Source of the DNA: Candidatus Saccharimonadota bacterium | GTDB lineage: Bacteria > Patescibacteriota > Gracilibacteria > BD1-5 > UBA2023 | Length of the DNA: 32,000 nucleotides | Direction: 5' to 3' | NCBI GenBank assembly: GCA_046350815.1 | Contig: JAXLZO010000001.1 | Coordinates: 1,050,001 to 1,082,000, forward strand | Part shown: positions 1 to 32,000 of the stretch, in pieces | How the letters are laid out: each line of letters opens with the position of its first letter | Numbering within the stretch: the stretch's first letter is position 1 | The notes under the pieces: model-generated | Told to the model about the DNA's origin: nothing | What the model saw: the letters and a program-made list of their open reading frames with translations, nothing else | Databases searched by the model: none | Position numbers and translations under genes: made by a program

Positions 1-302
1 ATGGATGGCTCTATTTTCCAAAATCAAATTTCTCAAATGAATTCCTATTTTTATTATTCCAGACAATCAGACCTTTGCTCATTCAACAATGAAGTGGTAG
101 TGTATTTACAAACTTGAAGACAGATATTCTAAAAGATTTTGAGGCACCATTACCAGATGATGATATATTAAAGGCATTTGATAATGTTGTAAAACCAATA
201 TTTTCTAAGATATATAACAACTCGCTCCAAATCCAATCTCTCTCAAAAACTCGCGATACACTTCTGCCGAAGTTGATGAGCGGGGAGGTGAGGGTCGCTT
301 AA
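1..302 (+). CDS. hsdS: Type I restriction-modification specificity subunit HsdS, C-terminal part (5' end outside window)
   Basis: Frame 3 is open from the window edge to TAA 300-302 once the in-frame TGA at 90-92 is read as Gly. The tail ...QIQSLSKTRDTLLPKLMSGEVRVA is the conserved C-terminal helix motif of HsdS subunits. Confidence 0.7.
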
Positions 303-327
303 TTATTTTTTAACTAACTTTTAATTT

Positions 328-711
328 ATGTTTGAACAAGAAATTAAAAAACTGCAGGAAGTTTTAAAATATTCAAGGTTGTGTAATAATAGTGAACTCT
401 ATTGGTTAGAATTTAAAACCAAATTTAAAGATGAAGAATCTATGCTTGAGCTGTTAGGGAAAAATATTTCCGGAATAGCAAATTCATGTACCTATAATAA
501 CTATAAAATCCACTGTAAAAGTGGATTTTTAAAGACAAATGGTGGAGATGACGGGAACTGCCCCCGTGTCCTCTGAGGCTCATTGTATACCGGTACGCTT
601 ATAGAATATTTGGATTACTCCTATTTCACGAGAAATACTCAAAAAGAAATATGAGACCTTTGTGAATACGAATACCTATCACAAAGAGTGAAAGACTTGA
701 GTATTCGGTAA
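328..711 (+). CDS. Hypothetical protein (127 aa with two in-frame UGA-Gly)
   Basis: ATG 328. The track ORF stops at TGA 574-576 but the frame stays open through a second TGA (652-654) to TAA 709-711. No recognisable motif. Confidence 0.4.
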
Positions 712-1052
712 CTCGAAGATACAACTCATCCCACGAGCACGGTAGAATGTGAGGTTGTGAGCAGACCATCTGGCACTCATCCACAATGTGGAGGCTCTAC
801 TAGTAATGTATGTGTATTACAGAACTAGGCAAAAGCTGGCGCGAACGCTACCTTTGACTTGAAGGCTGAAAGCCCAGCGAAACTACGTTTTGCAGTTGTT
901 TTTGTCGGTGTTGATCACAGAAGTCGCCGACACCTCCTGAAGCGAGTAGACAACAAGACTATCTCAAAGTAGAATTCTTATCATCCCCATGGAACCAACT
1001 GCACACCCAGTATAATGAGAATGCCTTGGTGAGCAAGAATTATTATGACAAT

Positions 1053-1385
1053 TTAGCCTTCAGGATCAATATTTGATCCGCGCATACCAATACCACCTCA
1101 CCTGCCAATAGGATGTTCTTCAACGAGTGCACCCAAAGCCTCGAAATAATTATCATTCGCTTCTCAACAACTCTTGCAAATACTCCAATTTGGTTGATGT
1201 GGCTTTCAACATGTTGAACAAGCATGAGAGGCTATCAAATCCACTACAGCTCTTCGAATAGCATGAGAGTATTGATTCAATCCGGCAAGACTTACCTCAG
1301 AATAATCAGGCAATTCTCTATACAACTTAAGTGCAGCACGTTCGATTTCACCACGAGCACGAAATTCAGAAACATTCATGCTCAT
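1053..1385 (-). CDS. Hypothetical zinc-ribbon protein (110 aa)
   Basis: ATG at 1385-1383 and TAA at 1055-1053, with three in-frame TGAs. Two of them complete CxxCG knuckles (CSTCG ... CKSCG), the classic zinc-ribbon pattern. The competing 60-aa track ORF 1043-1225 is in another frame and has no motif. Confidence 0.5.
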
Positions 1386-1495
1386 ATAAACAATAGTTTA
1401 AAAAAATATCAGTGATAGTAATCACGTAAAACTTATTGTCAAAATAGAAAATATCGCATTAAATATTACATAACACTAAATAAAATTATTATTAC

Positions 1496-1524
1496 TTGAC
1501 ATTATATATATAAATGATTAATAT
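1496..1524 (+). promoter_or_regulatory. Putative sigma70-type promoter for the 1551 gene
   Basis: TTGACA (1496-1501), 17-nt spacer, TAATAT (1519-1524), about 27 nt upstream of ATG 1551. Confidence 0.4.
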
Positions 1525-1550
1525 ACGTTTGTTATCTATTTTCTATTGGT

Positions 1551-2684
1551 ATGAAAATTAACACAATTCTTGGCATCGCTGCCACAATTTTTGCTACGAC
1601 TCTTGTTACAACTACGCTCACGGCTCAAGCATATGATGTTAACGCATACAATATGGGAGCAAAATCAGATACAGACAATATGGTTCCTTATGCGAGTGAA
1701 ATGAGATTTGCTCCATACTACTGGAACTACAGCACTTCGGACAACCGCAGAACTGAAGTTACAAACTACCGTCGTATGGTCCCTGTAGTGGCTGGCGGAC
1801 GCACTATTACAAATGTAGAGGTAGATGACAGCTTCAACGGTCAATATATCTATACAAGCTGGCGCTACTACCAGGAACGAACTGGTCAAACAAGCTATCC
1901 AGCAAATGCGATTTGGGTAAATACACCGAACGGTTATGGATTTTATGTTTCAACAACAAATTCATATTCTCCGACTACCACTCAATCGATTGTTATATAT
2001 ATTGTATCAAGCGACAAACAAACCTATGATCCAAATGGAAAAATGGTTGTAAATCTCTCCGATCGCAACAATAGTAACAACTATAGTTACAATAATAACT
2101 CTTGGAACAACAATCTTAATGATTACTACCAAAGTTATAATAACTATAATCGTTGCCGAACGGTAACAGCTCAGGATGAATGGAAACAGACAAGTCTCAA
2201 TGTATGGACTCGCGTTCCAGGGGTAACTACCACAAAATGTGACGATAATTCCAATTCAAATAATTGGAACTGGTACAATAATAGTTATAATAATTCCTCA
2301 TCATGGAATTCATACAACTATTCAACACCTACATGGAGTATTCCAAGTAATTATAACAGTTATTACAACTATAATAACTACAACAATGGATACTACTATC
2401 CAACTACTATCGAACGTCCAAGCGAACCAACTCTTCGTATCAACTACAATACGGACAATCGGGCTGGCAAACTCGTATGGAATAATCCAGGATCTGTTCA
2501 AGCAGACGAATGGAAAATATTCGAGAATGGTATCCAGATTGCAGCATCTCGCATCAGCGGATCTAATCAATCTGGAGAATATAATCTCAGCGAAACACGC
2601 ATCGGTAGCGAATATCGTGTAGAACTCTGTAAAAATGATTTCTGTACAACTTCTAAAGCGGTTGTATCATCTGGTCGTTATTAA
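1551..2684 (+). CDS. Secreted Asn/Tyr/Ser-rich low-complexity protein with a C-terminal Ig/Fn3-like domain resembling the chitinase A N-terminal domain
   Basis: Uninterrupted 377-codon ORF with no TGA. Signal peptide MKINTILGIAATIFATTLVTTTLTAQA. Long N/Y/S/W tracts (NNSNNYSYNNNSWNNN..., NSYYNYNNYNNGYYY). The C-terminus KLVWNNPG...WKIFENGIQIA...SEYRVELCKNDFCTTSKAV matches the 'W..NG....Y.v.lCn..gC..S' pattern of ChiA_N-type domains. Confidence 0.8.
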   Translation: MKINTILGIAATIFATTLVTTTLTAQAYDVNAYNMGAKSDTDNMVPYASEMRFAPYYWNYSTSDNRRTEVTNYRRMVPVVAGGRTITNVEVDDSFNGQYIYTSWRYYQERTGQTSYPANAIWVNTPNGYGFYVSTTNSYSPTTTQSIVIYIVSSDKQTYDPNGKMVVNLSDRNNSNNYSYNNNSWNNNLNDYYQSYNNYNRCRTVTAQDEWKQTSLNVWTRVPGVTTTKCDDNSNSNNWNWYNNSYNNSSSWNSYNYSTPTWSIPSNYNSYYNYNNYNNGYYYPTTIERPSEPTLRINYNTDNRAGKLVWNNPGSVQADEWKIFENGIQIAASRISGSNQSGEYNLSETRIGSEYRVELCKNDFCTTSKAVVSSGRY

Positions 2685-2690
2685 AAATAA

Positions 2691-2714
2691 AAAATTCCCA
2701 AATGGGAATTTTTT
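2691..2714 (+). terminator. Rho-independent terminator of the 1551-2684 gene
   Basis: Stem AAAATTCCC (2691-2699) pairs with GGGAATTTT (2704-2712) around a 4-nt loop, followed by a T-run. Confidence 0.7.
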
Positions 2715-2731
2715 ATTTGGGAGAATACAAA

Positions 2732-2846
2732 TCCCTCTCTTGAGGAGTGGAAAAGTCGGGGTGGAGTAACCGAAGAAATGCAGTGTAGCAGAAAGGATGA
2801 CAAATATTTAATGATTCTGTCTCAAGAGAACAGAGGGTTACTTTTT
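2732..2846 (+). repeat. Copy C of the repeated intergenic element (5' module only); possible small structured RNA
   Basis: TCCCTCTCTTGAGGAGTGG (2732-2750) plus GGGGTGG (2758-2764) match the 5' end of the element at 22744. CCCTCTCTTGAG can pair with CTCAAGAGAACAGAGGG (2821-2837), followed by TTACTTTTT. It lies between two convergent terminators, and the 72-aa track ORF there is not protein-like. Confidence 0.35.
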
Positions 2847-2860
2847 CATAATGACGCAGT

Positions 2861-2895: not shown

Positions 2896-2930
2896 AACAA
2901 AATGATCAGTACCAAAAAGTATACCATTCA

Positions 2931-4106
2931 CTATCCACCAATATTCTGAGAAAGATTCATAATAGGCTGCAGTACCGAGAGAGCAACACCGCCAACAACA
3001 ACCGCCATGAATACAAGAATAATTGGCTCAATGATCTTCGAAATGCCAGCAATTTGGAGATCTACCTCTTCATCGTAGAAAGTAGCGATTTTTACCACCA
3101 CCTTTTCAAGCTCTGCCGTCTCCTCTCCAACCTGTATCATGGAAGCAAGCATATCAGGAATCATCGGATCATCAGCGACACTGTCAGCAAGCTTGATACC
3201 ACGCTTGACATCCTCAGCCATGAGGAGAATTCTTTGCTTGTAACGTTCATTACCAACTGCAAAAGCCGAGATTTTAAGTGACTCAACCACCGTAACACCT
3301 GATCCGAGAAGATTGGAGAAAAGACGACAAAATTTTGAGAGAGCAACTTTTCGAATAATTTTTCCAAAGCCCAGTGGAATCTCAAGCATGATACTATCGA
3401 GAATGTATGCACCATTTCGAGTATTGTGATAAATTTTGAGCATAGCAATACCAATAATAACCGAGAGAATCATTGCGATCCAGTACGACTGAAAAAAATG
3501 TGAAATATTGATCAGAGTCTGAGTTGATGATGGAAGAGCTTGCCCCTCAAAAAGAGTCATGAGTTTTGGAATAACCACTGTCATGAGCACACCTACTGCA
3601 AGAAACATAACAGCAATGATCGTCATGGGATAAGTAAGTGCTCATTTCACCTTGCGAGTAATAGACGCCACCTTTTCTACTTGATCAGCAAGCTGCAAAA
3701 GGGCGCTATTGAGACGACCAGTCTTTTCGCCAGATTCAATGAGCGCGAGCTCTGTCTCGCCAAAGGTGTGTGGATAGAGCTCAAGAGCAGCAGAAAATGG
3801 AAGCCCTTGGCGAATCGATCCAAGAACCGATGCAATGAGCATCTTTGCTTTTTTGCTTTTCTCTTGCTTTTCAAGAATAGAAAGAGATCGCATAAGCGGA
3901 ATACCCGCATTCACCATAGTTGCAAGGAGGCGGTAGAATGCAACCTTCTGAGAAACATTCAGAAGTGAATTCCGAGGAAGCATTGCTTTAAGCACATCGA
4001 TAAAATCATGTTCTCGTGGAGCCTGCGTATCACCACTTTTATCTCGATCGATAATAATGAGTCCGTCATCGAGAGGTGTCTCAGATGTATTTGAAATATT
4101 TGGCAT
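2931..4106 (-). CDS. pilC: Type IV pilus / type II secretion platform protein (GspF/PilC family)
   Basis: Track ORFs 3642-4106 and 2931-3626 are in one frame, joined across TGA 3639-3641 (...RKVK-G-ALTYPM...). Duplicated GspF-type repeats and three hydrophobic segments give 391 aa. It lies immediately downstream of the ATPase. Confidence 0.9.
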
Positions 4107-4117
4107 AAAAATAGAAA

Positions 4118-5383
4118 TTAGTTTCCTTCTTTCGCAGCAGCATACACTTCTTCAAGCGAGGTATGTCAGAGAAGTGCTTTGATGATACCATCTTGTTCGA
4201 GTGAGATCATACCATCATCGATAGCGCGTTCATTAATCATCGTTGCACTTGCACCCGAGAGAATCAACTCTTTAATAGGAAGTGTGATTTCAAGAATCTC
4301 ATATATACCAACTCGCCCAAGATATCCAGTATGGTTACACTGATCACATCATGCAGCCTCGTAGAATTCAGAACGAGCGAGTATTTCTGGAGAAACACGA
4401 TCGATAAGCTCTTGTTTATCCGTTCGAGCAATAGCTCTCTTAAGGGAAGCTTGCATCGTTTGTGGTAATGTATCAGCTTTGATAGGCTTTCGACAGTTCT
4501 TACAGAGCCGACGAACCAGTCTTTGAGCAATAATTGCATTGATAGCAGCAGGAAGAAGAAATGGCTGTATTCCCATGTTCAGAATACGAGTCAATGTCTC
4601 AGCAGCAGAATTCGTATGGATCGTTGAGAGTACCAGATGACCCGTAAGAGCTGCCTCAATAGCAATATTGATCGTCTCATGATCACGAATCTCACCTACC
4701 ATGATAATATCAGGGTCCTGACGAAGCGCAGTACGAAGAGCACCAGCGAATGTATATCAGATGTCTGGAAAAATTTGTGATTGATTTACTCCATCGATCA
4801 CATTTTCAACTGGATCTTCGATCGTCATGATATTTACATCTTCATGATTGAGTGATGTGAGACAAGAATAAAGTGTGGTCGACTTACCAGATCAAGTTGG
4901 TCATGAGGTAAGAATAATTCCATTTGGAAGCCCGATCGCCTTTTGAAGCAATCTACCATTCTTTCCTTCGATTCCAAGATCTGAGATACTTGGAATTTTT
5001 TTGCTCTTATCTACGATACGCATTACAATCTTCTCACCATGCACGGTTGGAAGAGTCGAAACACGAAGATCAAGCGATTTATCCGGAAGAGTAATAGAAA
5101 TACGTCCATCCTGTGGCATGCGTGATTCATCAATCTTGAGATTTGCAAGAATTTTATAACGTGCGACAATCTGAGAATGGAGAAACTGTTGGTATTCGAT
5201 CGCTTCATAGAGAACTCCATCAATGCGATAACGAATACGAACAAATCCAGAAAGTGGCTCAACATGAATATCTGAAGCTTTCATAACCGCCGCAGCATTG
5301 ATAACAAGGTTACAAATAATTTGCGTATTCTCTCATTTGTATATTTCAGCAGAGAGTTCTTTGAGGAGTGGATGAGAAAGCAT
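4118..5383 (-). CDS. pilB: Type IV pilus assembly ATPase (GspE/PilB family, short form)
   Basis: One frame from ATG 5383 to TAA 4120-4118 with six in-frame TGAs. Motifs: ASDIHVEP, Walker A GPTGSGKST (both underlined Gly encoded by TGA at 4901-4903 and 4892-4894), [25 protein letters not shown], and the tetracysteine CKNC...CDQC motif. Confidence 0.92.
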
Positions 5384-5418
5384 AGAACAAAAAGATGGAA
5401 GAAATATGCAAATGAATT

Positions 5419-6513: not shown

Positions 6514-6518
6514 ATAAA

Positions 6519-7404: not shown

Positions 7405-7444
7405 ACAAAATAAAAAAATACCGTAATTTTCTATTGCGGTATTT
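7405..7444 (-). terminator. Rho-independent terminator of dinG
   Basis: Stem AAATACCG (7416-7423) pairs with CGGTATTT (7437-7444). A minus-strand T-run TTTTTTATTTT follows. The dinG stop codon (7431-7433) sits in the loop. Confidence 0.6.
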
Positions 7445-10223
7445 CTATTTTCTGTTTTGATAATTTTTTTTCTCGATAAAGATCAAGAAAAGATCGAGAA
7501 GAAACATGATGAATCTTGAGTCAAGTTGGAAGAGCATCAGCAAGACGAGCCCCCCATGAAGTCGTCACCAACCGATCATCAAATATAATAATTACACCCG
7601 TATCTTGAGGAGATCTGATGAGTCGCCCTATTCCCTGTCGAAGTTTGAGAATCATTTCCGGAATAGCATATTCAGCAAATGGGTCGCTATATTCAGCAGA
7701 CCGAGCTATATAGATAGGATCTGTGGGGACGAGAAATGGAAGCTTGAATATCGAGAGAAGAGAAAGCCCATCTCATGAGATATCAATTCCTTCCCAGAAA
7801 GCATCTGTACCAAAAAGAGCACTCCCATGAGCATTATTTCGGAAAGATTCAAGAATTTTTTTTCGCGAACCATTTCACTGAGAATAAAGCTCGATTCCAC
7901 TTGCCTTGAGGCGCTGTTTCACGGCTTGACTCGCCTCTCGAACCTGATCGTACGAAGTGAAAAGACCGAGCGTTCGGCCATGATTGATCTCGATTGCTTC
8001 ACCAAGTATCTCATAAGCCCTTTCGCGTGCTATGACCGACTTGATATTCGATATGTCAGATGGGATCAGCACCACCGCCTGACGGCTGTAATCAAAAATT
8101 TCACTATATTGAAGTTGACGTACTCACACCATACCAAGACGATTGCAGATGTAATCAAAATTTCCATTGATAGCAAGTGTTGCTGAAACACCAATAACAA
8201 CACCAACATCTTGAATATAGGATTGAAGATGTTCGGAGATACGAATCGGTGCATAGGATAATAACACTTGATCTCTGCGTTGATTGATCGATCTCACTAC
8301 ACCTGGACTCGCATTAAAATACATCTGAAGAAATGTGATACCATCATGGAATGTTCGCTGAATCATTTGGGTAAATCGGAGAGATTTCCCCTCAAGAAGT
8401 GTGTCAATCGCCTGTACATGGCTTGAGAGTGATGAGAGGAGAAATGATTTTTGGCGGAAAGTATCATCTGAGAGGATATTCGCATCAACATAGACCTCGT
8501 AGGTTTTTCCCCTCCCATATCCCCCACCTTGATCGCGACCAAGCGAATTACTGATTTTTTCATGATCAAGTAGGAGCGATACGAGCATTTCCATCTCGAG
8601 AAGCGTACTCTCACTATGTCGAACAAAATCATCAAATACTTCTCGTCCAAGTTTGACCTCGAAATCACTACGTCTCGATGCAAAACGGTCACATAATTTC
8701 TTGATAGATTCAATATCGAATCGAGCAGTCATCACACTCGTGATCGAGGACTCAAGAGCATGAGTCTCATCAACAATAAGCGCTCCAACATGTGGCATAA
8801 TACGATTCATAATATCCGACTCGATCTCCGTTGCGAGGAGAGAATGGTTGATCACGATAATATGAGCTTGTGCAGCTCTCTCACGAGCACATACAATCGG
8901 CTCGAGATCAAAATAAGGATTAGATTGAGAGAGTGTTTGTGGATGCGATGCATTGAGAGTTGAGAGGAGTGTCATATCACTCGCATACCAATTCATAGCA
9001 TCAATATCACCGATGGGATCATCATGAATTATTCGAAGCATACGCATCATGAGTATGGCATCTCGAAGAGAATAATGAGATTCTTCGAGTGCGTCGATCA
9101 CCCCAACAAGCGATACATAGTTCGATCGCCCTTTGAGAAGGGTATATGAGAGATCAATATCTGCACCTTTTGCTATAGTTGCGAGTCGAGGAAGATCTTT
9201 TTCAAAGAGTTGATCTTGGAGTGCTTTTGTACGAGTAGATATAGCTATATGACCCTTGGTAGTGTTCGTATAAGCAATAGATGGGAGGAGATAACCGAAA
9301 GTTTTTCCAATACCTGTTGGTGCCTCAATCAAGATCGATGTTTTACTTTCAAGGCAAGAGAGTATCTCTTGTTGCATTTCTCTCTGTGTTGGTCGTGGCT
9401 CCATACCACTCTTTTCATCAAATATTTTGGTCAAATGCTGAAATACATGCTGTGCACTTTCGTCACTTCTCGCATCTTCGTTTTCTTGCTCAATAATAGA
9501 TGCTTCAAAATCAGAAATTGGAAGTACTTTTTCTCTCGCTGCCAAGATAGATTCTCGAATATTATCATAACTTGCAAGCTCGAGAGAGCGAGCATTTTCA
9601 AAAAACTGTCGAAATGGATGCCTAGTATCAAGACGGGAGAGTATATAACTATACCATGTCCAGAGAGTTGTTGGTACTCATTCAATTTCTCATTCAAATT
9701 TTGCGAGCAAATCAAGGCTCGCAGCAGCATCACTCCAAGCACGATGTGCATCGGTATGAGTGATCTCATAATATTCCGAGAGTGTTGTGAGTGAAAGTGA
9801 TGCAAGATGTGGTGGTGCGAGAACCTGAGCTAAAGTGAAAGTATCGAGCTCCGTAGTGTTAGCAAGAATTGCAATCGTCTCATCTCCATCGGAAGATCTT
9901 CTCAATCCATTAGACGCAAGAAATTCGGTATCAAAACGAATATTATGGCCAACAATACAGGCCCCATCAATACGATCAGCAACATCATTGATAATCTCTT
10001 GAATATCAGGAGCATCATCCACCTCTGCCTGAGTAATTCCTGTGATATCAATAATTTCTTGAGTGAGTGGTTGCTCTGCATGGACAACTGTTGTATAGAT
10101 CTCGCGCTCAGCTCACGGGATGGGAGTAACAATACCAATCTCGATAATCTCATGATTACGATGATCGAGACCTGTTGTTTCAAGATCCAGACCTACATAG
10201 CGAATCTGCTGTAATGATGCCAT
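7431..10223 (-). CDS. dinG: DinG-family ATP-dependent helicase fused to an N-terminal DnaQ-like 3'-5' exonuclease domain (930 aa)
   Basis: Single frame from ATG 10223 to TAG 7433-7431, joining track ORFs 9690-10022, 8124-9545 and 7875-8075 through in-frame TGAs. Exonuclease motifs are GLDLETTGLD, GHNIRFD and HRAWSDA. Helicase motifs are EAPTGIGKT and IVDETHAL, plus the C-terminal RLIRS...G.. region. Confidence 0.9.
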
Positions 10224-10589: not shown

Positions 10590-11750
10590 CTACGCCGCTT
10601 TTTGATATCACTGAAGCTCTTTGAATCGAATAATCAGAGGATTCGACTGAATATAGGGACGAATGTCGCGATAATCTTTACCGTATTTATCTGCGATATT
10701 TTCTATACTAGTTGGAACTTGATCCCAATAATCAAGTGGCTTTGCCGTTAACAACCCACCATCAACTTGTTGTGTTGGTATACCATGAGAATTGAGTGGT
10801 GAATCTTTGAAAACAATATTCTCAATCCACATAAGATCTGGATTATCAGCTGCATGTGCAAAGGTAATCTCTATAGGTTTTCCATTCCAATACGTCTTAC
10901 CAATGATGGTTTCAACACGCTTCAAATGTTCATGAGTCATATCTGGTCACTTACGAAATCATCAGCGAAAATTCATATCAAATTTTGGATCGATAGGGAT
11001 CGAGCTCATTTTTTGTTTCACATCTCCAATCGAAAGTCACTTATCTAAATCCCCAAATGAATCTGCGTTTTGATACAACTTTGTTGATTGAAACTCATGT
11101 TTATATCGTTTTCTAAGATTCTCCATTCAAGACTTATCTACATTTGTAACTCACATTTGTGCTTTCCATATTTTAAGTAAATTTGTATTATTACTATAAT
11201 CCTTAGGAATATCATCAAACATTTTACTTAACTGCGAATCAACGACCGTCCCTTTTTCATATGATAAACCAAATTCACCCTGTCCTTTAGAAATAATATA
11301 GCTACCATCACCCTGAAGCAATACTCATTGAGAACAATGCCAATTTCCTCAACTTTGCGAAAAGTAAAACCATCGTGGTTCATATACTCAATTTACTTTT
11401 GTATATCAAAGAATTGTTTTACGGGCTCAAAATGCACTCGATACAAAAAATTCTCTTCATTCAATCACTATTTTATATTTTGGTTCCAAGCCAGGAGTAT
11501 TACGAAAGATCTTCTCTGCATCTCTTGAGAGCTCACCACGAGGAAAACTCGCGGGATCGATTTCTGTCATTCGAGCTTTTCATATGTTCACTTCCTTATT
11601 TTTTTCTGGTGCTTGCTGATTATTTTGATTTTGCTCGTTTTTTTGTTTCCCACTCTGTTCTTGTTTCTGATCTAATGATTTTTTCTCTCAATTTTTTATC
11701 AATTTTTCAGCCTCGACCGATGGTACATATCCTTCCATCGATATATCTTT
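10590..11750 (-). pseudogene. 3' portion of a roughly 1059-codon glycine-zipper/unknown-function protein gene interrupted by IS1595
   Basis: The frame is open (UGA=Gly) from the IS boundary to TAG 10592-10590 and contains track ORF 10608-10940. It is in phase with the 5' portion only after removal of the IS plus one 7-bp duplication. Confidence 0.75.
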
Positions 11751-12503
11751 GGGTCTAAACCAGTTACGGGTTATATTGACGAAGTAACTTTAGCACTTCC
11801 TTATAAATATCTTTTCATTGAATACGACAATTATATCTGAATTCAGATTCTTTCAAAAAATAGTAGAAGTAGACTTTCTTGATTCCATTGAATTGAGAGA
11901 GTCTTCTTTTGGTATAACTCCAAAATGACTCTATTCAATTAATGTGTTGAGTTCATCTTGCAAATTCATTTGCTCCGTGATGAACACGGTAGTGTTTCTC
12001 ATATCCAATATCTACAAGCCCATCATAAGCTCACCATCCATCACTGTTAATCTCAGACTCTTCTATACGAAGTTTTCATCGAATGATTGGCACGAGAGTC
12101 CTTGCTTTTACATCAGGAACTATCTCAGTATATACTTTTCAGTTTCTTTTGAGTAAACCAAAGACTATTGTCTTCATACCAGCTCACCTTCCTCTCTTTC
12201 ATCGGACTCTTGTTGGTCAGAAGTAACTCTCATCTATCTCAACATTTCCAGTCCATATTTCATTCTTTTCTCTCTCACAGAGAAAGGCTATCGCCTTTCT
12301 GATATATCTATACCAATCCTGTGTTGTTTTTGGATTGAGACCTGTTAATACCGCTGTTTTATCTGAAGTAAAATCCAGAGAAAAATATTTCACAATTTCT
12401 CTTATTTTTGCATCTCAAATTCGTGATTTTTTCCTATAGGTAGTTTTACTGATCATAGAGCCAAGTTTATGGGATAATTTATCCTGTCAACTGGTTTAGA
12501 CCC
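11751..12503 (-). mobile_element. IS1595-family insertion sequence (753 bp), intact
   Basis: Perfect 15-bp terminal inverted repeats GGGTCTAAACCAGTT (11751-11765, and 12489-12503 reverse-complemented), imperfectly extendable to about 25 bp. Flanked by the 7-bp direct repeat TATCTTT (11744-11750 and 12504-12510). Carries a single DDE transposase gene. Confidence 0.9.
11764..12456 (-). CDS. IS1595 (ISXO2-like) DDE transposase, 230 aa
   Basis: ATG 12456 and TAA 11766-11764. It is invisible in the track because of 10 in-frame TGAs, all at Gly positions of the family consensus: VEIDESYFGP..RGKRGRGAG, FGLLKRNGKV, INSDGWGAYDGL, HYRVHHG..EFARGTQHINGIESFWSY.KRRL, LKESEFRYN. Confidence 0.9.
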
Positions 12504-14529
12504 TATCTTTTTGCATCCGAATCACTCCGTTCTTATCTTTCCACGATACATCCCAGAGACCTGTTTGTTCATTCCACCGCTCCAGTCGTACTTTTCCGAT
12601 AGACCCATCACCAAGTCGATAATTGATCATCTGTCATTTTACAAAGAGTCCATCAACTGGAAAGAATCTTTGGCGAATTTGCACAATCTTCTCTGTCATT
12701 TTGAGAGAAACACCACTTGAGAGATGAACACTATTCTTGAGGCTCAAACCAAGATCATCGAGAAATTGTTTAAGTTTTGTGATTGGGATAGATTTCATAT
12801 CTCCGAGAAATTCCTTCAACTGCACAAGTTTTTCTCAGATATCTTTTGACCAATCGATAACATCTCAGTTATTTATGATTTGATTTTCACCAACATCTCA
12901 AAGAGTATTCACAACTTCATCAATCGTTTCAACGGTTTGACCATCCAAATATTTGTCTGGATTCTGTTGAAATCGATCACAATCTTTGAGAATCTTATCA
13001 AATTGTTCTGGATTTTTTGATGCAAGTGCTCGTTGCAATTCTCGATAGAGACGATCAGCCTCATCTCCTATTTCACGCCCACGAGGTCAGAGTTCGGAGA
13101 GTGGACGATGAGCACTATAGTTCGTCATCATTGCAAAGATTCGTGATTGTATTTCACGAGCATGCGGATCATGAATCAAGCGTTGATCTGGAAACATAAG
13201 ACGATTATGTGTGTCAAAATAGGTATCTGCTTTTTTGAGAAGAGCTTCTACCTGTTGCATATTACCAGCATTCTCAGTTGCAATCAGATCTTTTCGCATT
13301 TGGAGGAGCATCTTAGCAATATCTGGATTCAATGTACTTTCTTTTGATCACACTGCGAGTAATCGAGCGGACATTTCAGAAATTCGTTGATTCAACGCTT
13401 CAGGAATACCATTTGTTGAGGTTGATTCTCCTTCTCGTATTTTTTTCTTTTTGAGGCGTTTTGCACCAAATACAAGATCACCTGTCTCACCAACTCCAAC
13501 TGCCAATGCTCACGTTTTTTCAAGTATCTTTCATCCAACCTTTTTAAGTTTTGTTGCTCATTCCGCTTTTTGGATTGTTGTACCGAGTGCTTCCATTCAC
13601 TTTCAGAATTTTGCAGCTCATTTGAGAACGATTCATCCACCAACAAGAGCACCGATGATGAGACCAGGAATTCGTCCGATCGCTTCAGCTTGCTCTCATT
13701 GAGGGAGAGTAGCGATTCGCTTCATTTCTTTCGAGATGGTATCACCGATGATCACACTTGCTTTCGTCCATGTTTCTCATTTCCAGGCATTCTCCGTGAT
13801 AAATCCACCAACACCAACCATGAATTTTGCAGTCGCATCACGAGTCGACTCTTGCGTTGCAAAATTATAGCAAAATATCGCAAGATCAGGTATGGATTTG
13901 ATCACCATCCAGACACTCTCAGTGACTCATTCTAGGACTCCTTTTGCACCATGAAGAGCATTGCTTGCACCATCTTTCCAATTCTCAGCTGAGCCAAGTG
14001 ATCGAGCAGTAGTTCCAGCCATTTCCCCAAAAGTTGGCACATTCAGAGTATCACCCAATATTCCCGATAAAGTACGAAGAGTAATATTCATTTCTGCTAC
14101 TTGATCTCGTGTGAAATGTCTCACTACTTTTGGCACAATACTGTCAATTTCCCGAAGCATAGCTGCAGCTTCTCTCTGAAGATTGCCAATCATACTCTCA
14201 TACGTCGATTGCACCGTTTCTCCACCAAAAACACCAACAATCTTGTCCATTCATTTCATCACAAGTCCTGTATCTTCTTTGTATTGTGCATTGAGAGTAT
14301 CGAATCGTTCTCTGATATTTGCAGCACGATTTCAAAAGCGCTTGATAATATTTTGATTGATAACAACACTATCAAGTGCTCCAAGTTGATTCTTGGTTAT
14401 TTCTTTGAGACGCTCGCTACCACCCACCATTTTTCTATCAATGGTTCAAGATTTTTTCTGCATGAGAATATCTTGTTTTATTGCAGGCTTATTTTTAGGT
14501 GCTTCTCATGATGATGCAATTTCAGGCAT
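12496..14529 (-). pseudogene. 5' portion of the IS-interrupted large protein gene (as it stands, a 677-aa truncated ORF ending 8 nt inside the IS)
   Basis: ATG 14529. It joins track ORFs 13927-14250, 13087-13332 and 12634-12825, all in one frame, through many TGAs. It reads ...IRMQKD then R-V-stop (TAA 12498-12496) inside the IS end. Contains a Gly-zipper segment IPGLIIGALVGGGIVLKGAAKFGKG. Confidence 0.75.
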
Positions 14530-14604
14530 ATAGTATGGGTAATATTTGTCCCATCGTATCACAAGAAACTATATTCTGTCCAAGAAATAATCTTGACAAA
14601 TTCC

Positions 14605-14634
14605 AAAAAAAGAAGGACTAGTCCTTCTTTTTTT
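14605..14634. terminator. Palindromic bidirectional terminator after rsmG
   Basis: AAAAAAAGAAGGACTAGTCCTTCTTTTTTT is a perfect palindrome flanked by an A-run and a T-run. The rsmG stop codon (14618-14620) lies at the apex. Confidence 0.65.
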
Positions 14635-15286
14635 GGAACACAACGATATGTCGTATATGTTGATCTGCCTCATCTTTATAAATATCAAGTGTATAGGTAT
14701 GATCCGCCTCGAGCGCAAATCCAAGTTGTTTGGCACGCCGGAGACCATTCGTCCATTCCTTTGCATCAGGAGTCTTATAGAGAATGAGCGATCCACCGAG
14801 CCTCAGAAGCGGTCGGGCATACTCAATCATAATATCCATCTGAGCGGTCGACCTCGAGACAATCGCATCAAAGTAAATCGGCTCTTCAAAGAGTTTATGA
14901 AATTCCTCAGCTCTCGCCTGAAATGCTTCGATATTCTGCAATCCAAGGTCTATCATGAAACGCTGACATGCTCGGATTTTCTTTCCAACACTATCAAGAA
15001 GCACCACATGAAGCTCAGGATCGACGATCGCAAGGGGTATTCCTGGAAATCACCCACCAGTACCTATATCGAGAACCATTCATGAGAACGTGACAAACTT
15101 TCTCACCATGAGCGAATCAATAAAATGCTTGAGTACTATATCCTCTGGCTCACGAATCGCTGAGAGATTTGTATGACTGTTGTATTCCACAAAGAGATCG
15201 AGAAATTGATGAAATTGATCAATAATTTGAGAATCAAACTTCATTCCATGTTCCAAAAATCGTTGCTCTATTTGTTCTCTATTCAT
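14618..15286 (-). CDS. rsmG: 16S rRNA (guanine527-N7)-methyltransferase RsmG (GidB)
   Basis: Track ORFs 15080-15286 and 14618-15007 share a frame and are joined by TGAs at 15080-15082 and 15050-15052. The second TGA completes the SAM-binding motif VLDIGTGGGFPGIPLAI. Confidence 0.88.
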
Positions 15287-15716: not shown

Positions 15717-15719
15717 ATA

Positions 15720-16592
15720 CTACTTTTGAAAAAATTTGGACAGATTACCGAGAAAATCAGTATCAAGAACATATTTTGTATTACCACCAGAGAGTGCGTC
15801 ACGCATTACAGAGAGTTGTTCTCTCGCTACGGCTTGCCCCTGAAAATACGCCTGTGCAGCCTGAGACTCAAGCTGGAGAGCTGTCGCACGAGCTTGTGCT
15901 ACAGCTACCTCTGCTTGAGCCTGCCCTTCTGCAAGAAGACGTTGTGATTCTTTCTCAGATTCTGCCTGAAGAATTTTTGCTTGTTTTTCGCCTTCAGCAC
16001 GAGTAATAAGAGCTTGTTTGTATCCTTCTGACTCGAGGATCGAAGCGCGTTTTTCACGTTCTGCCTTCATCTGCTTGGACATAGAGTCCTGGATATCTGT
16101 CGGAGGATCGAGGCGTTTGATTTCGACACGTGTCACCTTCACTCACCAAGCATTCGTCTCACGGTCGAGCGACTCAAGGAGACGAGCATTGATGATTTCT
16201 CGATTGGAGAGCGTATCATCAAGGCTCATCGTTCCAAGTACGGAGCGAAGATTCGTCTGAGCAAGATTCACTACTGCAAGATACACATTATTTATATTGT
16301 ACGTAGCTGCCTTTGGGTCATTGATCTGAATATAGACAATTCCATCAACCGTAACACCTACATTATCTTTAGTAATAATCTGCTGTTCTGGAACATCCAC
16401 AACCTGTTCACGGATATCTACACGACGGATCGTCTGAACATAAGGAATAAGAAAGTGAAGACCTGCATCGACCGTACCAGCGTATCTACCAAGCGTCTCC
16501 ACAAGACCGAGAGAACCTTGATCAATTCTCTTAAAAGAACTCATCAGCGTAACAATGGCAATGAGGAAAACCAAAAATATAACAAAACTCAT
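15720..16592 (-). CDS. SPFH/band-7 (stomatin-like) protein
   Basis: Track ORFs 16143-16592 and 15720-16142 are contiguous in one frame across TGA 16143-16145 (...[15 protein letters not shown], the conserved WG.kV motif). N-terminal TM helix, SPFH core and a Glu/Ala/Gln-rich coiled-coil tail. Confidence 0.88.
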
Positions 16593-16646
16593 ATTTGAAA
16601 AAATCAGAAATTAAATACAGTAGCATCAATAGTGTATGCAAATCAC

Positions 16647-17636
16647 ATGAAAAATACAACTCCTTTGCGTAAAAATATTGTGAGGATTGGGTGAGGAAAT
16701 AGTGCTGATGCAGTGCTTGCTTGACTCAAAAAATATCATGACCTCAATATTGCGGCAATTGTTACTATGGCAGACAGTGGTGGATCGAGTGGCAAGCTTC
16801 GTGAAGAATTTGGGACACTTCCAGCATGAGATGTCAGACGGGCAGTGGTCGCGCTCTCGCGAGATGAATCTCTCGTGAGAGCACTCTTTGAGCATCGTTT
16901 CGAGTGAAATGGAACGCTGAGTGGACATACACTTGGCAATCTCATACTCACAGGGATGGAACAAATCTATGGCAATCTTCAGACAGCCATAGACCGAATG
17001 GGTGAACTCTTTCGTCTCGATGGTAAGGTCATACCCTCAACGCTCTCCAATGTTCATCTACGTGCAACCATGGAAGATGGTACTATTATTAATGGCGAAA
17101 CCAATATTGACGTCCCGAATAGAGACCCGAGACTTGCTATCACCAATCTTGAACTTATAGGAGATGCAAAACTCAATCCTCAAGCACAAGACGTGATAGA
17201 GCACGCAGACTATATTATTCTCGGTCCTGGTGATCTCTATACCTCACTTCTCCCCAATCTCCTTATACCAGGAATGTGCGAAGCAATAGCAAAAAGCAGT
17301 GCACGAGTCATCCTCATGGTCAATCTCATGACCAAACCGGGCGAAACATATGGATTTCATGTTGATGATTTTATAAGAATCATTGAAAAATATCTCTGAG
17401 TCAATATTATAGATTCAATACTCGTCAATAATAATCTTGATTTTCCGAGTGATCAACTTCAAAGATACAAAGATGGCTTACAGGAGCCAATCATTATCAA
17501 AGATAAAGAGTCACTCCTAAAACAAGGTTACCAAATAGTTGAGCGCGACCTGCGATCATACGAATCAGACGCACGACATGATATTGTCAAAGTTACAAGA
17601 ATTCTTCGAGATTTTATCGATGGATGGATCAAATAA
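16647..17636 (+). CDS. yvcK: YvcK/CofD-family protein (UPF0052, gluconeogenesis factor-like)
   Basis: ATG 16647 to TAA 17634-17636, extending track ORF 16956-17399 at both ends through TGAs. Motifs: IVRIGGGNS (TGA 16692-16694), [27 protein letters not shown] and LSGHTLGNL. Confidence 0.85.
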
Positions 17637-18122: not shown

Positions 18123-19487
18123 ATGCTTAAAACACCACCACATTCTATTGAAGCCGAGCGAGCTATACTCGGAAGCATTCTTCTCGAAAGCAAACTCATT
18201 GCAGAAGTGGCAGGATTTTTGCAACATGAGGATTTTTATGATCCTCGTCATGTACATATGTACGAGGCAATGATAGCACTCTATACAAAGAGTCGACCTA
18301 TCGATCTCCTGACTGTCAGCGAGTACCTTGATGACCGCAAGCTTCTCCAGAACATCGGAGGAAACGCCTATTTGATTGAAACATCTGAATCAGTATACAG
18401 CACCTCGAATATTTGGGAATACGCACAAATCGTCAAAGCAAAATCAGTCCTGAGAAAACTCATAAAATCCGGCAACGATATTCTCATGCTTGGATACAAT
18501 GAAGAATCAGAAATCAATCAACTTCTTGAAAAAGCGGAACAAGCACTCTTCGGTGTCACACAGACATTCATACAAAACAAGCTTGTACATATCAGAGATA
18601 TACTCTCATCTCGTTATGACGAACTCTCTGAGATTCATGCAGATCCATCCAGTGCCAACAATAATTCCTGTGCGAGCAAATTTCCATCACTTGATAAGAT
18701 GCTTGGGGGCTTCAAAGCTGGTGATATGGTGATCTTGGCAGCTCGTCCAAGTATGGGTAAGACTGCATTTGCACTCAATATAGCACAAAATATAGGGGAA
18801 GGCGGGAAAAATGTTGCCATCTTCTCGCTTGAGATGACCAAGGAACAACTCACGGATCGTATGATCTCAGCGAGTATGGCTGTTGATTCATGGAAACTCC
18901 ACAAGTGACTCCTCTCTGATCAAGAATTCTCCCGTCTTGGTGATGCGCTTGAGACACTCTCTGAAGCAAACATCTACATCGATGACAGCTTCGTTGCAAA
19001 TCTCCTCGAGATCAAGTCAAAAGCACGTCGACTCAAGATGGAATCATGACTTGATATGATCGTGATCGACTATCTTCAACTGATGGGAAGCGGAGTGAAT
19101 ACTAATCGCGTACAAGAAATATCCGAAATATCACGCGGTATCAAATCGCTCGCCCGAGAACTCAAAGTACCAATCATTGCTCTCTCTCAGCTCTCACGTG
19201 CTGTAGATAGTAGACCTGATAAAGCACCAGTGCTCTCAGATCTACGCGAATCAGGTTCTATCGAGCAAGATGCCGACGTCGTTATCATGCTCTTACGAGA
19301 GGATTATTATGACAGCCCAGGGGCAACTGCAAGCATGCCGGGGATAACTCGCGTGCTCGTCCGTAAGAACCGTAATGGGCCAGTTGGTGAAGTACAACTC
19401 AAATTCAAAAAAGAATCTCAAAAATTCGTAGAATTAGCGCCGGAAGAGCAGTATATACCGAAAGGACCACCAGATGAAAGTTTTTAA
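18123..19487 (+). CDS. dnaB: Replicative DNA helicase DnaB
   Basis: Track ORFs 18123-18908 and 19056-19487 share a frame and are joined by TGAs at 18906-18908 and 19047-19049, both at conserved Gly positions (..KLHK-G-LL.., ..[17 protein letters not shown]). Motifs: [16 protein letters not shown], Walker [11 protein letters not shown], and [29 protein letters not shown]. Confidence 0.95.
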
Positions 19488-25852: not shown

Positions 25853-26740
25853 CTATTTATCCAAACTTTGCTCAATTTTTATAAGTTCTTTTTGTAAAAC
25901 AGGTGTTGCAAAGCTTATTCAAGGAGTCATATCTATGATAGCTGTGTTGATGCCCACAACACGACCATCCAATCCTACGAGTGGTCATCAAGAACTACCT
26001 GGATGAATCGTAGCATCAGTCTGAATGAATCATTTTGAAAAATTATTCGCAGTGAATATTCGATCAATAGCAGAGACGACTCACATACTCATAGTGTTTG
26101 GAAGAGTAAGCAAAGGATTGCCGAATGCAAGCACGACACTTCCTGGATGGATATTGCTGTGTGAAGCAATATCCAAAAAGGCATCATGCACATACAAATT
26201 ATGCTCCTCATCATAGACCTGCAGCAAAGCAAGATCAGACCCACTTGCATCTGACCAAACCATTTTTGCATCCAATTTTCGACCACCCGATACAACCACG
26301 ATATATTCAGAAGATGAACTTTCCACAACATGTGCACTTGTCAGAACATATTTTCCACCAAGTACAAAAAAGCCAGATCCACCAGACAATTGCTTTTTCG
26401 TTCCATTATGCATCAAATACCATGGATTCGCTTCGTAAAAATCAATATCTTGTTTTGCAACGATGGATACAAGAGCTGGATTGATCTTTGCAGAAATGTC
26501 AACGAGCTCAGTAGAAAATTGTTGCAAATTCGATGCTTGAATTAATTGAGTATGAGGATCAAAAAAATAAAAGTAAATCATTCCAGTGATGAAACTGATT
26601 TGCAATACAAACAAAACTCCAACTCAACTCATCAAATGTGACTGTTTCATACAGGGAAGAAAAGAGGGAAATATTGTACACAAAAGAAACAAAGCTCCAA
26701 ACGCACGTAGCAGAACAAAATACTCATCTTTGCTTTGCAT
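25853..26740 (-). CDS. Membrane-anchored trypsin-like serine protease (S1C/HtrA-like, no obvious PDZ domain)
   Basis: This frame contains track ORF 26081-26614 and continues through TGAs to TAG 25855-25853. The catalytic triad contexts are TSAHVV, SDLALLQV and HPGSSGGPL, with the GG encoded by TGA-TGA at 25985-25990. The start is uncertain: ATG 26740, 26650 or 26632. Confidence 0.82.
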
Positions 26741-26775: not shown

Positions 26776-26863
26776 GGAGAGGTCGCATAGTGGCCTAGTG
26801 CGCACGCTTGGAAAGCGTGTATACCGCAAGGTATCGGGGGTTCGAATCCCCCTCTCTCCGCCA
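26776..26863 (+). tRNA. tRNA-Ser (anticodon GGA), CCA encoded
   Basis: Cloverleaf by eye: acceptor GGAGAGG/TCTCTCC, anticodon stem CACGC/GCGTG with loop TTGGAAA, long variable arm TATACCGCAAGGTATC, T-arm GGGGG-TTCGAAT-CCCCC, then discriminator G and CCA. Confidence 0.9.
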
Positions 26864-26884
26864 TAATTATCAAAAGAAAATGTT

Positions 26885-26904
26885 ATCCTCGCGAAAGCGG
26901 GGAT
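26885..26904 (+). repeat. GC-rich hairpin repeat (copy 2) in the tRNA-Ser/tRNA-Ser spacer
   Basis: ATCCTCGC-GAAA-GCGGGGAT forms an 8-bp stem with a GNRA loop. It matches 10521-10540 including flanking bases. Confidence 0.6.
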
Positions 26905-26913
26905 CTACTATAT

Positions 26914-27001
26914 GGAGGGGTGCTAGAGTGGTTGAATAGGCTGGTCTCGAAAACCAGTATGGCGAAAGTCATCGTGGGTTCGAATCCCATCTCCTCCGCC
27001 A
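26914..27001 (+). tRNA. tRNA-Ser (anticodon CGA), CCA encoded
   Basis: Acceptor GGAGGGG/CTCCTCC, anticodon stem CTGGT/ACCAG with loop CTCGAAA, long variable arm TATGGCGAAAGTCATC, T-arm GTGGG-TTCGAAT-CCCAT, then G and CCA. Confidence 0.9.
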
Positions 27002-28759: not shown

Positions 28760-28774
28760 ATGTACAAATTAAAT

Positions 28775-29183: not shown

Positions 29184-29208
29184 AGATTTTTAGTTTTATT
29201 GACATAAA

Positions 29209-30276
29209 TTACTCAGCTGCATCAACCGAACGAACGCTAATGGAATATCCAAGAAGTTCTGATGCAAGGTTCACATTTACACCACCCTTTCCAAGCACCT
29301 TTGGTTTTTCTTCTTCACTCACATAAGCAATAATACTGCGATTCTCTTCATCTACTTCACATCGAATAACATCACCTGGAACGAGCGACTCTTTTGCGAG
29401 CTCTGCCATATCAGGAGTATAGTTGATAATATCAAGTTTCTCACCAGAAATCTCATCAACTACGGCACGTACACGGATACCCTTTGGTCCGATCATACAT
29501 CCAGCAGGATCCACCTCATCGAATTCCGTACCGACAATTACCTTTGTTTTTACTCCTGGAATACGAGCAATAGCAACTATTTCAATCGTACCATCTTCAA
29601 GCTCTGGAACATGCATCTCAAAGAGTTTGACAACAAAATCTTTGTCTTTTCGGGTAAGAGTTACACGTGGCCCCTCAACAAGATCATTATTCACTGACTT
29701 CACATATACATGCATACGTGAACCAGGGGTTGGCTTATCGAGCGATGTTTGCTCGGATTTTGGAAGAATCACCTGGTTGCCGTTGAAATCAAGTACGACT
29801 TTCTTATTCTCAATCATTTCAACTTTAAGCGAAAGCACCTCTCCAACCTTATCCTTGAAAAGATCATAAATCTTCTCCTTCTCAGTCTCTTGAATTTTTG
29901 ATACAATCACCTGACGAGCAACCTGTGAAGCAATGCGACCAAATCCATCATTTGACAATACATCATCAGTAACGTCAATTTCAACCACATCACCAATAGT
30001 ATACCCTGACTCCTCACCTCCAAGTTCTTCAAGGGTAATTTCAAGATCCTCATCCATGAGGTCATCAGCAGCAACAACTGTTTTTTCAACGGACATTTCA
30101 AAGCTATTTTTTTCAAAATCAAGAACAACATTTACATTCATATCTTTTGATCCAAAATCACGCTTATAAGCACTCTTGAGAGCAGCCTCAACAACACCAT
30201 AAAGCTTTTCCTTTGGAATTTTCTTCTCAAGTGCAATCTGGGATACAGCTGCATCTATAAGTTTAAGGTCAAGCAT
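29209..30276 (-). CDS. nusA: Transcription termination/antitermination factor NusA
   Basis: Intact 355-aa ORF with no TGA. N-terminal NusA domain (IALEKKIPKEKLYGVVEAALKSAYKR), S1 domain and two KH domains (..GPKGIRVRAV.., ..LGKGGVNVNLASEL..). Confidence 0.93.
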   Translation of the reverse strand: MLDLKLIDAAVSQIALEKKIPKEKLYGVVEAALKSAYKRDFGSKDMNVNVVLDFEKNSFEMSVEKTVVAADDLMDEDLEITLEELGGEESGYTIGDVVEIDVTDDVLSNDGFGRIASQVARQVIVSKIQETEKEKIYDLFKDKVGEVLSLKVEMIENKKVVLDFNGNQVILPKSEQTSLDKPTPGSRMHVYVKSVNNDLVEGPRVTLTRKDKDFVVKLFEMHVPELEDGTIEIVAIARIPGVKTKVIVGTEFDEVDPAGCMIGPKGIRVRAVVDEISGEKLDIINYTPDMAELAKESLVPGDVIRCEVDEENRSIIAYVSEEEKPKVLGKGGVNVNLASELLGYSISVRSVDAAE

Positions 30277-30298
30277 AATTCAATGATAAAATGATATT

Positions 30299-30329
30299 TA
30301 TAAGAAAAAGTTTGGATCACTCCAAACTT
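30299..30329 (-). terminator. Rho-independent terminator after bcp
   Basis: Stem AAGTTTGGA (30308-30316) pairs with TCCAAACTT (30321-30329) around loop TCAC. A minus-strand T-run CTTTTTCTT follows. Confidence 0.6.
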
Positions 30330-30374
30330 CTGACACACAAAGGTTATGTATTTTTCTTTTTTTTGCAAGATTTA

Positions 30375-30836
30375 TTATAGAATTTCTTTTGTTTCACGCA
30401 GTACTTTCTCGGCATGACCAGTAGCGCGGACATTTTTCCATGTCTTGAGGATATTTCCCTCGCTATCGAGAAGAAAACTAGATCGAATAAGTCAAAAAAT
30501 TATTTTTCCATACATATTTTTCTCACCCATCACCGAGAATGAATCCACAAGATATCCATCATCAGCTATGAGATCAAGTCAGATACCACATGAAGACTGA
30601 AAATTCGCATGGGAATCACCACTATCTTTCGATACACCGATAACCTGAACTCCAAGAGAGAGAAAGTCCGAAGATAAACGAGTAAAATCCTGACCTTCCA
30701 ACGTACAACCGGGAGTATTATCCTTCGGGTAGAAATAAAGAAGTGTATACTTTGATCATGAAAGCAATTCACCATATGATATTTGTACATGATTTCCTCA
30801 CTTTTTTGTAAGAGAGAGAAGAGTATTTTTATCCAT
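30375..30836 (-). CDS. bcp: Thiol peroxidase / peroxiredoxin, Bcp (AhpC-TSA) family
   Basis: ATG 30836 to TAA 30377-30375 with four in-frame TGAs. LLYFYPKDNTPGCTLEGQDF carries the peroxidatic Cys motif, followed by VIGVSKDS..SH..F and GHAEKVL. Track ORF 30566-30907 is an out-of-frame artefact. Confidence 0.85.
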
Positions 30837-30846
30837 AGAAATAATA

Positions 30847-31476
30847 TTAAGATTGAATCTTTGAATTCCCCTGAATTCGTACTAAGAAGACAATAGCGAT
30901 AACGCACGCAAATGCAAGTAGCACAAGGCCAGTATATTTAATATATTCCTCAGCAATTTCCATCATGTGAGGCCCATATTTTCATCCCATATACCCGATG
31001 ATCGCAAGGACAGTACACCAGATTCACGCTCCAGCAACCGTCGCGATAGTAAAATTTCTTGGTGACATCAGAAATACTCATGCAGGAAGAGAAATGAGAT
31101 GTCGCACGACTGGAATAAGACGGCCAAGAAATGTATAGAGTATACTATTTTTGAGAAAGAGCTTTTCGGCTCGCCTGTATTTTATCTCAGTAATGCCAAG
31201 GTATTTACCAAATTTGAGAATAGCAGGAATACCAACAAATGAAGCAAGAAGATAATTTGCACACGCTCCAACAAGACTTCCAAAAGTTCCACTCGCAACA
31301 ATAATCCAAAGGGGAATTCCAGAATTATAAGCAATTACTCATGCAGGAATCATAACCAGTTCGGACGGCACAGGAAAGAGAGAAGACTCCAGTGCCATGA
31401 AAAAAAATATCGCCATTATCAAAATTTCATTCTGACCGGCGAAAGAATTAATGAGAATATTGAGTTCGTGAAACAT
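30847..31476 (-). CDS. dedA: DedA/SNARE-associated family membrane protein
   Basis: ATG 31476 to TAA 30849-30847 with four in-frame TGAs, so it is absent from the track. Family signatures: ESSLFPVPSELVMIPAG, GRLIPVVRHLISLPAG. Confidence 0.8.
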
Positions 31477-31482
31477 AAAAAA

Positions 31483-32000
31483 CTAGAGATGAAACATTCG
31501 TGCCAATCGCAAAAGAGGAGCTACTAAAAAACGGTCGTACGCTCTATTGTAACGATGAGTAAGACTATGTACAAAGAAAGCAACCATCATACCGATGATC
31601 CATCATGCAATAATATCCGATGGATAATGAATACCTGCTATAACACGTACTACACACATATCCAAGCCAATGAATCAGACCAAAATAGTCAGCCAACGAC
31701 GCTCAAAAATAACCGCTGCCGCAATCATCGATGCGGCAGCAAAAGCTGCATGTCCCGATGGAAAAGAGTTATCAGGAGTATGATCGATTAGTGGAGCTAT
31801 TCCTGGAACAATTACCTCTGGACGTGGACGCTCTGGAAGAAATTGATTGAAAATAGCATATACAAGAAAAACACTCACGATCATAAAAAATCATTTCAGT
31901 GCCTCTCGGCGATACACATCGGACCGATGGTACACCCCCAAGAGCCACCAAATCAATAAAGATAATGCCACAGCAAACACTGGAAGATCAGCATAAATAC
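31483..32000 (-). CDS. PAP2-family phosphatase (undecaprenyl-diphosphatase/PgpB-like), 5' end outside window
   Basis: The frame is open from the window edge to TAG 31485-31483 with TGAs read as Gly, and it contains track ORF 31675-31884. PAP2 motifs: SFPSGHAA, RVIAGIHYPSDIIAGG. Confidence 0.8.

Follow-up and report, generated by a model that had tools for sequence, protein, structure and literature searches.

The reading of UGA as glycine is not novel: it has been known since 2013 as NCBI table 25, the Candidate Division SR1 / Gracilibacteria code (Campbell et al. 2013 and Rinke et al. 2013, both as cited in PMC8629427; Hanke et al. 2014, PMC4032931), and the organisms using it are now placed in GTDB class JAEDAM01, with the orders BD1-5 and Absconditabacterales. 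According to the literature on this lineage, a tRNA-Gly(UCA) is present and release factor 2 (RF2) has been lost. Two further codes capture UGA. In table 4, used by Mycoplasmatales, Hodgkinia, Zinderia, Nasuia and some Eggerthellaceae, it is read as tryptophan, and ORFs break up under table 11 just as they do with table 25. In the extended code of Absconditabacteria UGA is glycine but CGA/CGG are additionally assigned to tryptophan, and CGG is read as tryptophan in some Gracilibacteria (Shulgina and Eddy, PMC8629427). Here we describe a 32,000-nt stretch of contig JAXLZO010000001.1 (positions 1,050,001 to 1,082,000, hereafter the window), whose genes carry numerous in-frame TGA codons. The window is almost certainly to be translated with table 25, with UGA an ordinary glycine codon, UAA and UAG the only stops, UGG encoding Trp and CGA/CGG encoding Arg, and it probably derives from a UGA-recoded Gracilibacteria/Absconditabacteria lineage (GTDB JAEDAM01). 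This is in line with previous reports (PMC8629427, PMC4032931, bioRxiv 10.64898/2026.05.24.727570). No difference in kind separates the window from the described table 25 systems: UGA occupies conserved glycines, only UAA/UAG terminate, UGG remains Trp, the nearest relatives are recoded Gracilibacteria-type metagenome-assembled genomes (MAGs), and the GC content of 39% lies inside the reported range of 21-53%. The match is read here from coding sequences.

Under the standard code (table 11), open reading frames (ORFs) of at least 100 aa in the window sum to 5,874 aa. When TGA is treated as a sense codon, the total becomes 25,083 aa, and the maximum ORF length increases from 473 aa to 930 aa. 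Freeing TAA or TAG in place of TGA gives only 8,439-9,378 aa, and the gain is thus specific to TGA. As freeing TGA also yields many shadow ORFs, the gene set was curated by inspection and Pfam scans. Greedy longest-ORF calling with TGA as sense had chosen such shadows, and those at 1539-2807 (-), 29194-30300 (+), 807-1415 (+) and across most of 14877-17633 (+) were discarded and replaced. The curated set contains 28 coding sequences (CDS; 27 when the gene split by an insertion sequence, IS, is counted as one), one tmRNA and two tRNA-Ser genes (Table 1). In-frame TGA occurs 163 times, in 26 of the 28 CDS. The original prediction had put the number of affected genes at about 25 of 33; the total is 27-28 CDS plus 3 RNA genes rather than 33. 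No internal TAA or TAG is found within the TGA-carrying genes, and genes end in TAA (18) or TAG (9), as had been predicted. The proteins obtained by reading up to these stops agree in length with PDB homologues in the case of PilB, DnaB, RsmG, YvcK and SPFH. With TGA masked as X, a single unbroken Pfam match spans the TGA positions and covers nearly the whole model (T2SSE 12-368 of 370, DnaB_C 4-254 of 255, CofD 1-289 of 290), with further matches across masked positions for GidB, Band_7, Trypsin_2, DDE_Tnp_IS1595 and others. Six of the eight hypothetical genes that remained had no match in the Pfam scan, and neither did a 295-aa gene or either half of the IS-split gene.

Fragmented ORFs by themselves could hint at decay, in which case UGA would still be a stop and the TGA codons would mark pseudogenes, sequencing or assembly errors, or rare selenocysteine insertion or read-through. 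Nothing specific to the window favours this explanation, which we consider to have a negligible chance of being correct. Despite the number of TGA codons, the genes that carry them contain no in-frame TAA or TAG, and TGA is found at catalytic and structural glycines of essential genes, for instance in DnaB, in Walker A of PilB and in the active site of the protease. In addition, the NusA protein is found in identical form on public Logan contigs, all 5.9 kb or shorter, from three SRA runs independent of one another (SRR26348419, SRR26348423 and SRR14234124), where the adjoining standard-code calls are fragmented in the same way (51-125 aa). Selenocysteine recoding was considered separately and rejected, given that UGA is frequent, distributed gene-wide and aligned to Gly; neither the PDB homologues nor the consensus columns of DnaB showed Cys opposite a TGA.

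Four blind tests, with TGA masked as X throughout, addressed which amino acid UGA encodes: alignment to PDB chains, to DnaB orthologues and to IS1595 transposase homologues, and amino acid composition. All four point to glycine and away from tryptophan or stop. Comparison with the best PDB homologue places Gly at 18 of 28 alignable TGA positions, against a background of approximately 8% (binomial p = 1e-13), and Trp at none (0/28). The individual counts are listed in Table 1. Each of the triplets singled out in the original prediction is indeed TGA in the orientation given (coordinates in Table 1). The PilB Walker A sequence s-X-p-t-X-s-g-k aligns to g-p-t-g-s-g-k of four PilB chains, while g-s-s-X-X-p of the protease aligns to g-n-s-g-g-p, g-t-g-g-X-f-p-g of RsmG to g-x-g-x-g-f-p-g, and i-g-X-g of YvcK to g-g-g. 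In DnaB, X263 and X310 correspond to Gly in three of four PDB chains.

A scan of genome contigs with DnaB returned 80 loci, giving an alignment of 81 orthologues, 63 of which are TGA-free and 18 of which contain TGA. Across these 18 sequences, 116 of the 236 TGA occurrences fall in columns with a Gly consensus among the 63 TGA-free sequences (background 7.5%), and none (0/236) falls on Trp. The two DnaB TGA codons of the window occupy columns that are Gly in 63/63 and 59/63 of the TGA-free genomes. Within the clade, the members lacking TGA at a given TGA column almost always have Gly (GGN), also at columns where A, T or N is found in Firmicutes. That the same columns hold either TGA or GGN in 17 independent relatives is difficult to reconcile with UGA as a stop codon.

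The window contains an IS1595-family element with perfect terminal inverted repeats and a target duplication. When the IS and one copy of the target site are removed in silico, the flanking parts join into one ORF of 1,070 codons that contains 35 TGA, confirming that the IS interrupts one gene. The transposase of this element appears at first to favour tryptophan, as in the table 4 code of Mycoplasmatales and several insect endosymbionts. The closest database transposases show W at the TGA columns, and table 4 restores long ORFs just as table 25 does. The database homologues present an almost pure mixture of W and G at these columns, with a median Trp content of 5.7%. Inspection of the DNA resolves this: at locus L084 (10001-10699), the W residues of the homologue correspond to 7 TGA and 4 TGG codons, demonstrating that W at the TGA columns of the database transposases is the product of translating TGA with table 4. 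Indeed, in the 33 homologues with low Trp content, seven of the ten transposase TGA columns are Gly in 30-33 sequences, and the other three columns are variable. The claim that all ten TGA codons of the transposase fall on conserved glycine therefore holds for seven of them and fails for three. The low-Trp set includes a Chromatiales MAG and P0102, whose contig translates correctly under table 11. True Trp columns behave differently, using TGG and never alternating with G: of 120 homologues, 116 and 113 have W at the TGG columns of the transposase, and none has G. Together with the absence of Trp from the PDB and DnaB sites, this leaves the tryptophan reading extremely improbable. Homologues at 53-60% identity to the transposase, at least some of which use the standard code, have Gly at 7 of the 10 TGA sites. 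The public relatives of the transposase (P0001-P0120) were called with table 4, with Trp wherever the DNA has TGA.

Composition leads to the same assignment. GGN codons alone give a Gly content of 5.7% for the window CDS, rising to 7.4% with TGA added, and UGA makes up 23% of Gly codons. Trp stands at 1.0% from TGG alone, whereas reading TGA as Trp would raise it to 2.7% and place Trp at all 163 sites. TGG was correctly predicted to remain Trp: it aligns to conserved Trp in the IS1595 transposase and in SPFH, where the TGG in question lies next to a TGA. A further departure would be table 25 with CGA/CGG additionally read as Trp, as in Absconditabacteria, in which case table 25 alone would mistranslate the window. 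Such a change has been reported in related groups (PMC8629427), and CGG is rare here (17.6 per 10,000 codons). CGA, however, is a major codon (130 per 10,000) found on conserved Arg in DnaB, PilB and SPFH, and two CGG codons, at residue 292 of PilB and residue 884 of DinG, likewise match conserved Arg. As just 2 of 17 CGG sites lie in well-conserved columns, the CGG test is thin, but we consider the extended code very unlikely overall. On this evidence, UAA, UAG, UGG, CGA and CGG retain their standard meanings, and plain table 25 fits.

Placement of the window agrees with the Gracilibacteria/Absconditabacteria-type lineage proposed in the original prediction. By DnaB, the window is closest to MAGs that carry the labels Candidatus Gracilibacteria, 'Peribacteria' or Patescibacteria (50-65% identity), followed by standard-code Firmicutes at approximately 47% identity. 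In-frame TGA codons (1-26 per gene) are carried by the DnaB of 17 of the 19 nearest relatives, and the use of UGA as Gly is thus seen, at the level of sequence, to be common to the closest relatives. A neighbour-joining tree of DnaB unites all TGA-containing sequences in one clade, with two TGA-free relatives as sister; the window nests inside this clade and pairs with L004 (CAZINU010000001.1) on a long branch. The DnaB relatives and this tree point to probable membership of the recoded clade. L004, the closest DnaB relative of the window, has a GC content of 58% and still carries an in-frame TGA in DnaB; this GC content exceeds the 21-53% quoted for recoded Gracilibacteria and Absconditabacteria (PMC8629427). 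The window DnaB is at most 65% identical to that of any GTDB species representative, which suggests that the organism probably belongs to an unrepresented lineage within the group. The GTDB representatives include no relative at the species level.

While the glycine meaning of UGA is evident from the coding sequences, its molecular basis is more indirect. A dedicated tRNA with anticodon UCA and the glycine identity elements G1:C72, C2:G71, G3:C70 and U73 would decode UGA, and RF2, which terminates at UGA, would have been lost. Our basis for both steps is the published literature on the lineage, together with related metagenome contigs, rather than this genome. Metagenomes were scanned for a pattern combining a UCA anticodon with Gly acceptor identity. 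This yielded 80 loci, and ARAGORN confirmed tRNA(UCA) genes of 76 nt (plus CCA) in 43 of these. Among the confirmed genes, 38 are members of a single 76-nt family (GCGGGGGTAACATAAAAGAGTGAGTGTACTAAGGCTTCAACCC...) that is almost invariant and has an atypical D-arm without the usual GG. The contigs carrying this family have low GC and their ORFs collapse under table 11. At five loci a canonical tRNA-Gly(GCC) or tRNA-Gly(UCC) adjoins the tRNA(UCA) gene at a distance of approximately 6-18 nt, and at seven loci (one shared with those five) a tRNA-Arg(GCG) is present on the same contig. Examples among loci L088-L166 are L099 (624-796), L093 (2639-2799) and L113 (3968-4137). By tblastn, the proteins of these contigs are only distantly related to those of the window (26-34% identity).

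A number of observations weigh against the table 25 assignment or the steps proposed to underlie it. No tRNA(UCA) gene was found in the window with ARAGORN or Rfam, both tRNAs present having other anticodons, and a search of the window with the anticodon arm conserved in the tRNA(UCA) family, allowing up to three mismatches, gave no match. The same gene is absent from 21 loci of recoded relatives (20 around DnaB, and L084 around the IS1595 homologue). No prfB occurs in the 32-kb window, a span uninformative for the genome as a whole. Because the scan pattern required the Gly identity bases, their presence in the matches does not constitute independent evidence. The DnaB tree is a single-gene, neighbour-joining tree without support values; the relatives' record labels ('Peribacteria', 'Gracilibacteria') leave their taxonomy ambiguous, and some genomes labelled Gracilibacteria use table 11. 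Lastly, the columns occupied by approximately one third of the alignable TGA codons are variable, with N, E, K, H, Q, A, S or R found in homologues. Such sites are uninformative in either direction, and the statement that each TGA falls on an invariant glycine thus applies to approximately two thirds of the alignable sites but not to the remainder, the DinG-like protein being one example.

The use of TGA is uneven. It accounts for 15% of Gly codons in Pfam-annotated genes as compared with 29% in genes that lack annotation or belong to the IS (chi-square p = 2e-5), and for 50% in the transposase. Expression level, gene age and foreign origin are candidate causes. The two genes that are free of TGA encode NusA (24 GGN codons) and an Asn/Tyr-rich secreted protein (18 GGN codons). 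It is tempting to speculate that the contig represents a deep, unrepresented table 25 lineage and also that its use of UGA for Gly is under selection rather than neutral, although we regard this combination as rather unlikely. The deep placement would follow from the low DnaB identity to GTDB representatives and from the long branch beside the 58%-GC relative. Selection would be suggested by the avoidance of UGA in conserved or highly expressed genes, such as NusA and the annotated set, and by its enrichment in lineage-specific, surface and mobile genes. If this were so, the IS could be seen as a mobile element that passed from one genetic code into another and then became trapped there, since GGN stands at the transposase TGA sites in its standard-code relatives (53-60% identity).

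The consequences for annotation are practical. With table 11, translation halts at the first TGA after a median of only 19% of the protein, and the longest stretch free of TGA spans a median of 50% of the gene, confirming that standard-code ORF calls are broken as predicted. Table 11 callers thus fragment genes, and ORF-based readings of the window are wrong for 26 of 28 genes; other readings of this window that rest on standard-code ORFs need re-evaluation under table 25. Table 4, usually picked by automatic coding-density heuristics, produces full-length proteins with Trp placed silently at 163 Gly positions. Public protein databases already contain relatives mistranslated in this manner, and table 4 calls in large protein collections amount to a systematic mistranslation of table 25 organisms. 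Table 25 is detectable by tools such as Codetta and gTranslate.

Table 1. Features of the window, with in-frame TGA codons and the residue found opposite them in PDB homologues.
Feature	Position	Strand	In-frame TGA	Evidence and remarks	Gly at aligned TGA positions (best PDB homologue)
HsdS-like type I restriction-modification specificity subunit, C-terminal fragment	3-299	+	1	Pfam Methylase_S, weak; window edge	
tmRNA, 449 nt	540-988	-		Rfam RF00023, 60.4 bits; missed by ARAGORN	
Small zinc-ribbon protein	1053-1385			CxxC-X motifs present	
Asn/Tyr-rich secreted protein	1551..2684	+	0	12 TGG	
PilC (T2SSF)	2931..4106	-	1	Pfam T2SSF 2.1e-49	
PilB (T2SSE ATPase)	4118..5383	-	6	Pfam T2SSE 2.6e-118, one match	5/5, both Walker A glycines included
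PilB Walker A TGA codons	4901-4903 and 4892-4894	-			
DinG-like exonuclease-helicase	7431..10223	-	7	Pfam RNase_T, DEAD, Helicase_C_2	0/6 (best match ~25% identity, variable columns); 2/3 against second match
IS-split gene, no assigned function	10590..14562	-	35		
IS target duplication TATCTTT, 7 bp	11744-11750 and 12504-12510				
IS1595-family insertion sequence, 753 bp	11751..12503	-		Pfam DDE_Tnp_IS1595	
IS terminal inverted repeats, perfect, 15 bp	11751-11765 and 12489-12503				
IS1595 transposase CDS	11764-12456	-	10		
RsmG	14618..15286	-	2	Pfam GidB; 15050-15052 in S-adenosylmethionine (SAM)-binding G-x-G-x-G motif	1/2
SPFH/stomatin-family protein	15720..16592	-	1	Pfam Band_7; TGA directly after TGG Trp, motif W-G	1/1 (X149 = Gly in 3/3 PDB chains)
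YvcK/CofD-family protein	16647..17636	+	5	Pfam CofD 5e-79; 16692-16694 in G-G-G motif	4/5
DnaB replicative helicase	18123..19487	+	2	Pfam; TGA at 18906-18908 and 19047-19049	2/2
Two adjacent large proteins, 867 and 875 aa	20092..25800	+	28 and 19	No Pfam match; highest counts in the window	
HtrA-like serine protease	25853..26650	-	6	Pfam Trypsin_2; TGA-TGA 25985-25990 in catalytic G-x-S-G-G-P	4/5, TGA-TGA in G-x-S-G-G-P included
tRNA-Ser(GGA) and tRNA-Ser(CGA)	26776..27001	+		ARAGORN, Rfam; only tRNAs of the window	
NusA	29209..30276	-	0	Pfam; 24 Gly codons	
Bcp peroxiredoxin, DedA/VTT protein, PAP2 phosphatase (partial)	30375..31998	-	4, 4, 3	Pfam	Bcp 1/2 (X115 = Gly, X86 = Ala)

Among the remaining features, the genes at 2931-7361 (-) form a type IV pilus-like cluster, in which PilC and PilB are accompanied by two upstream membrane or secreted proteins (364 and 280 aa) with no Pfam match; these might be lineage-specific pilus assembly components. 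The large 867-aa and 875-aa proteins have N-terminal hydrophobic segments and are rich in Ser, Thr, Gly and Asn, and going by these features they are probably surface proteins. The two CxxC motifs predicted for the small zinc-ribbon protein are present as CxxC-X in the window sequence. On the plus strand, the 'ORFs' 325-708 and 807-1415 shadow the tmRNA and this zinc-ribbon gene. The tag frame of the tmRNA is AKRSFAGLSAFKSKVAFAPAFA and ends in a UAG stop, and the stretch past the resume codon measures 113 nt as compared with 42 in the model.

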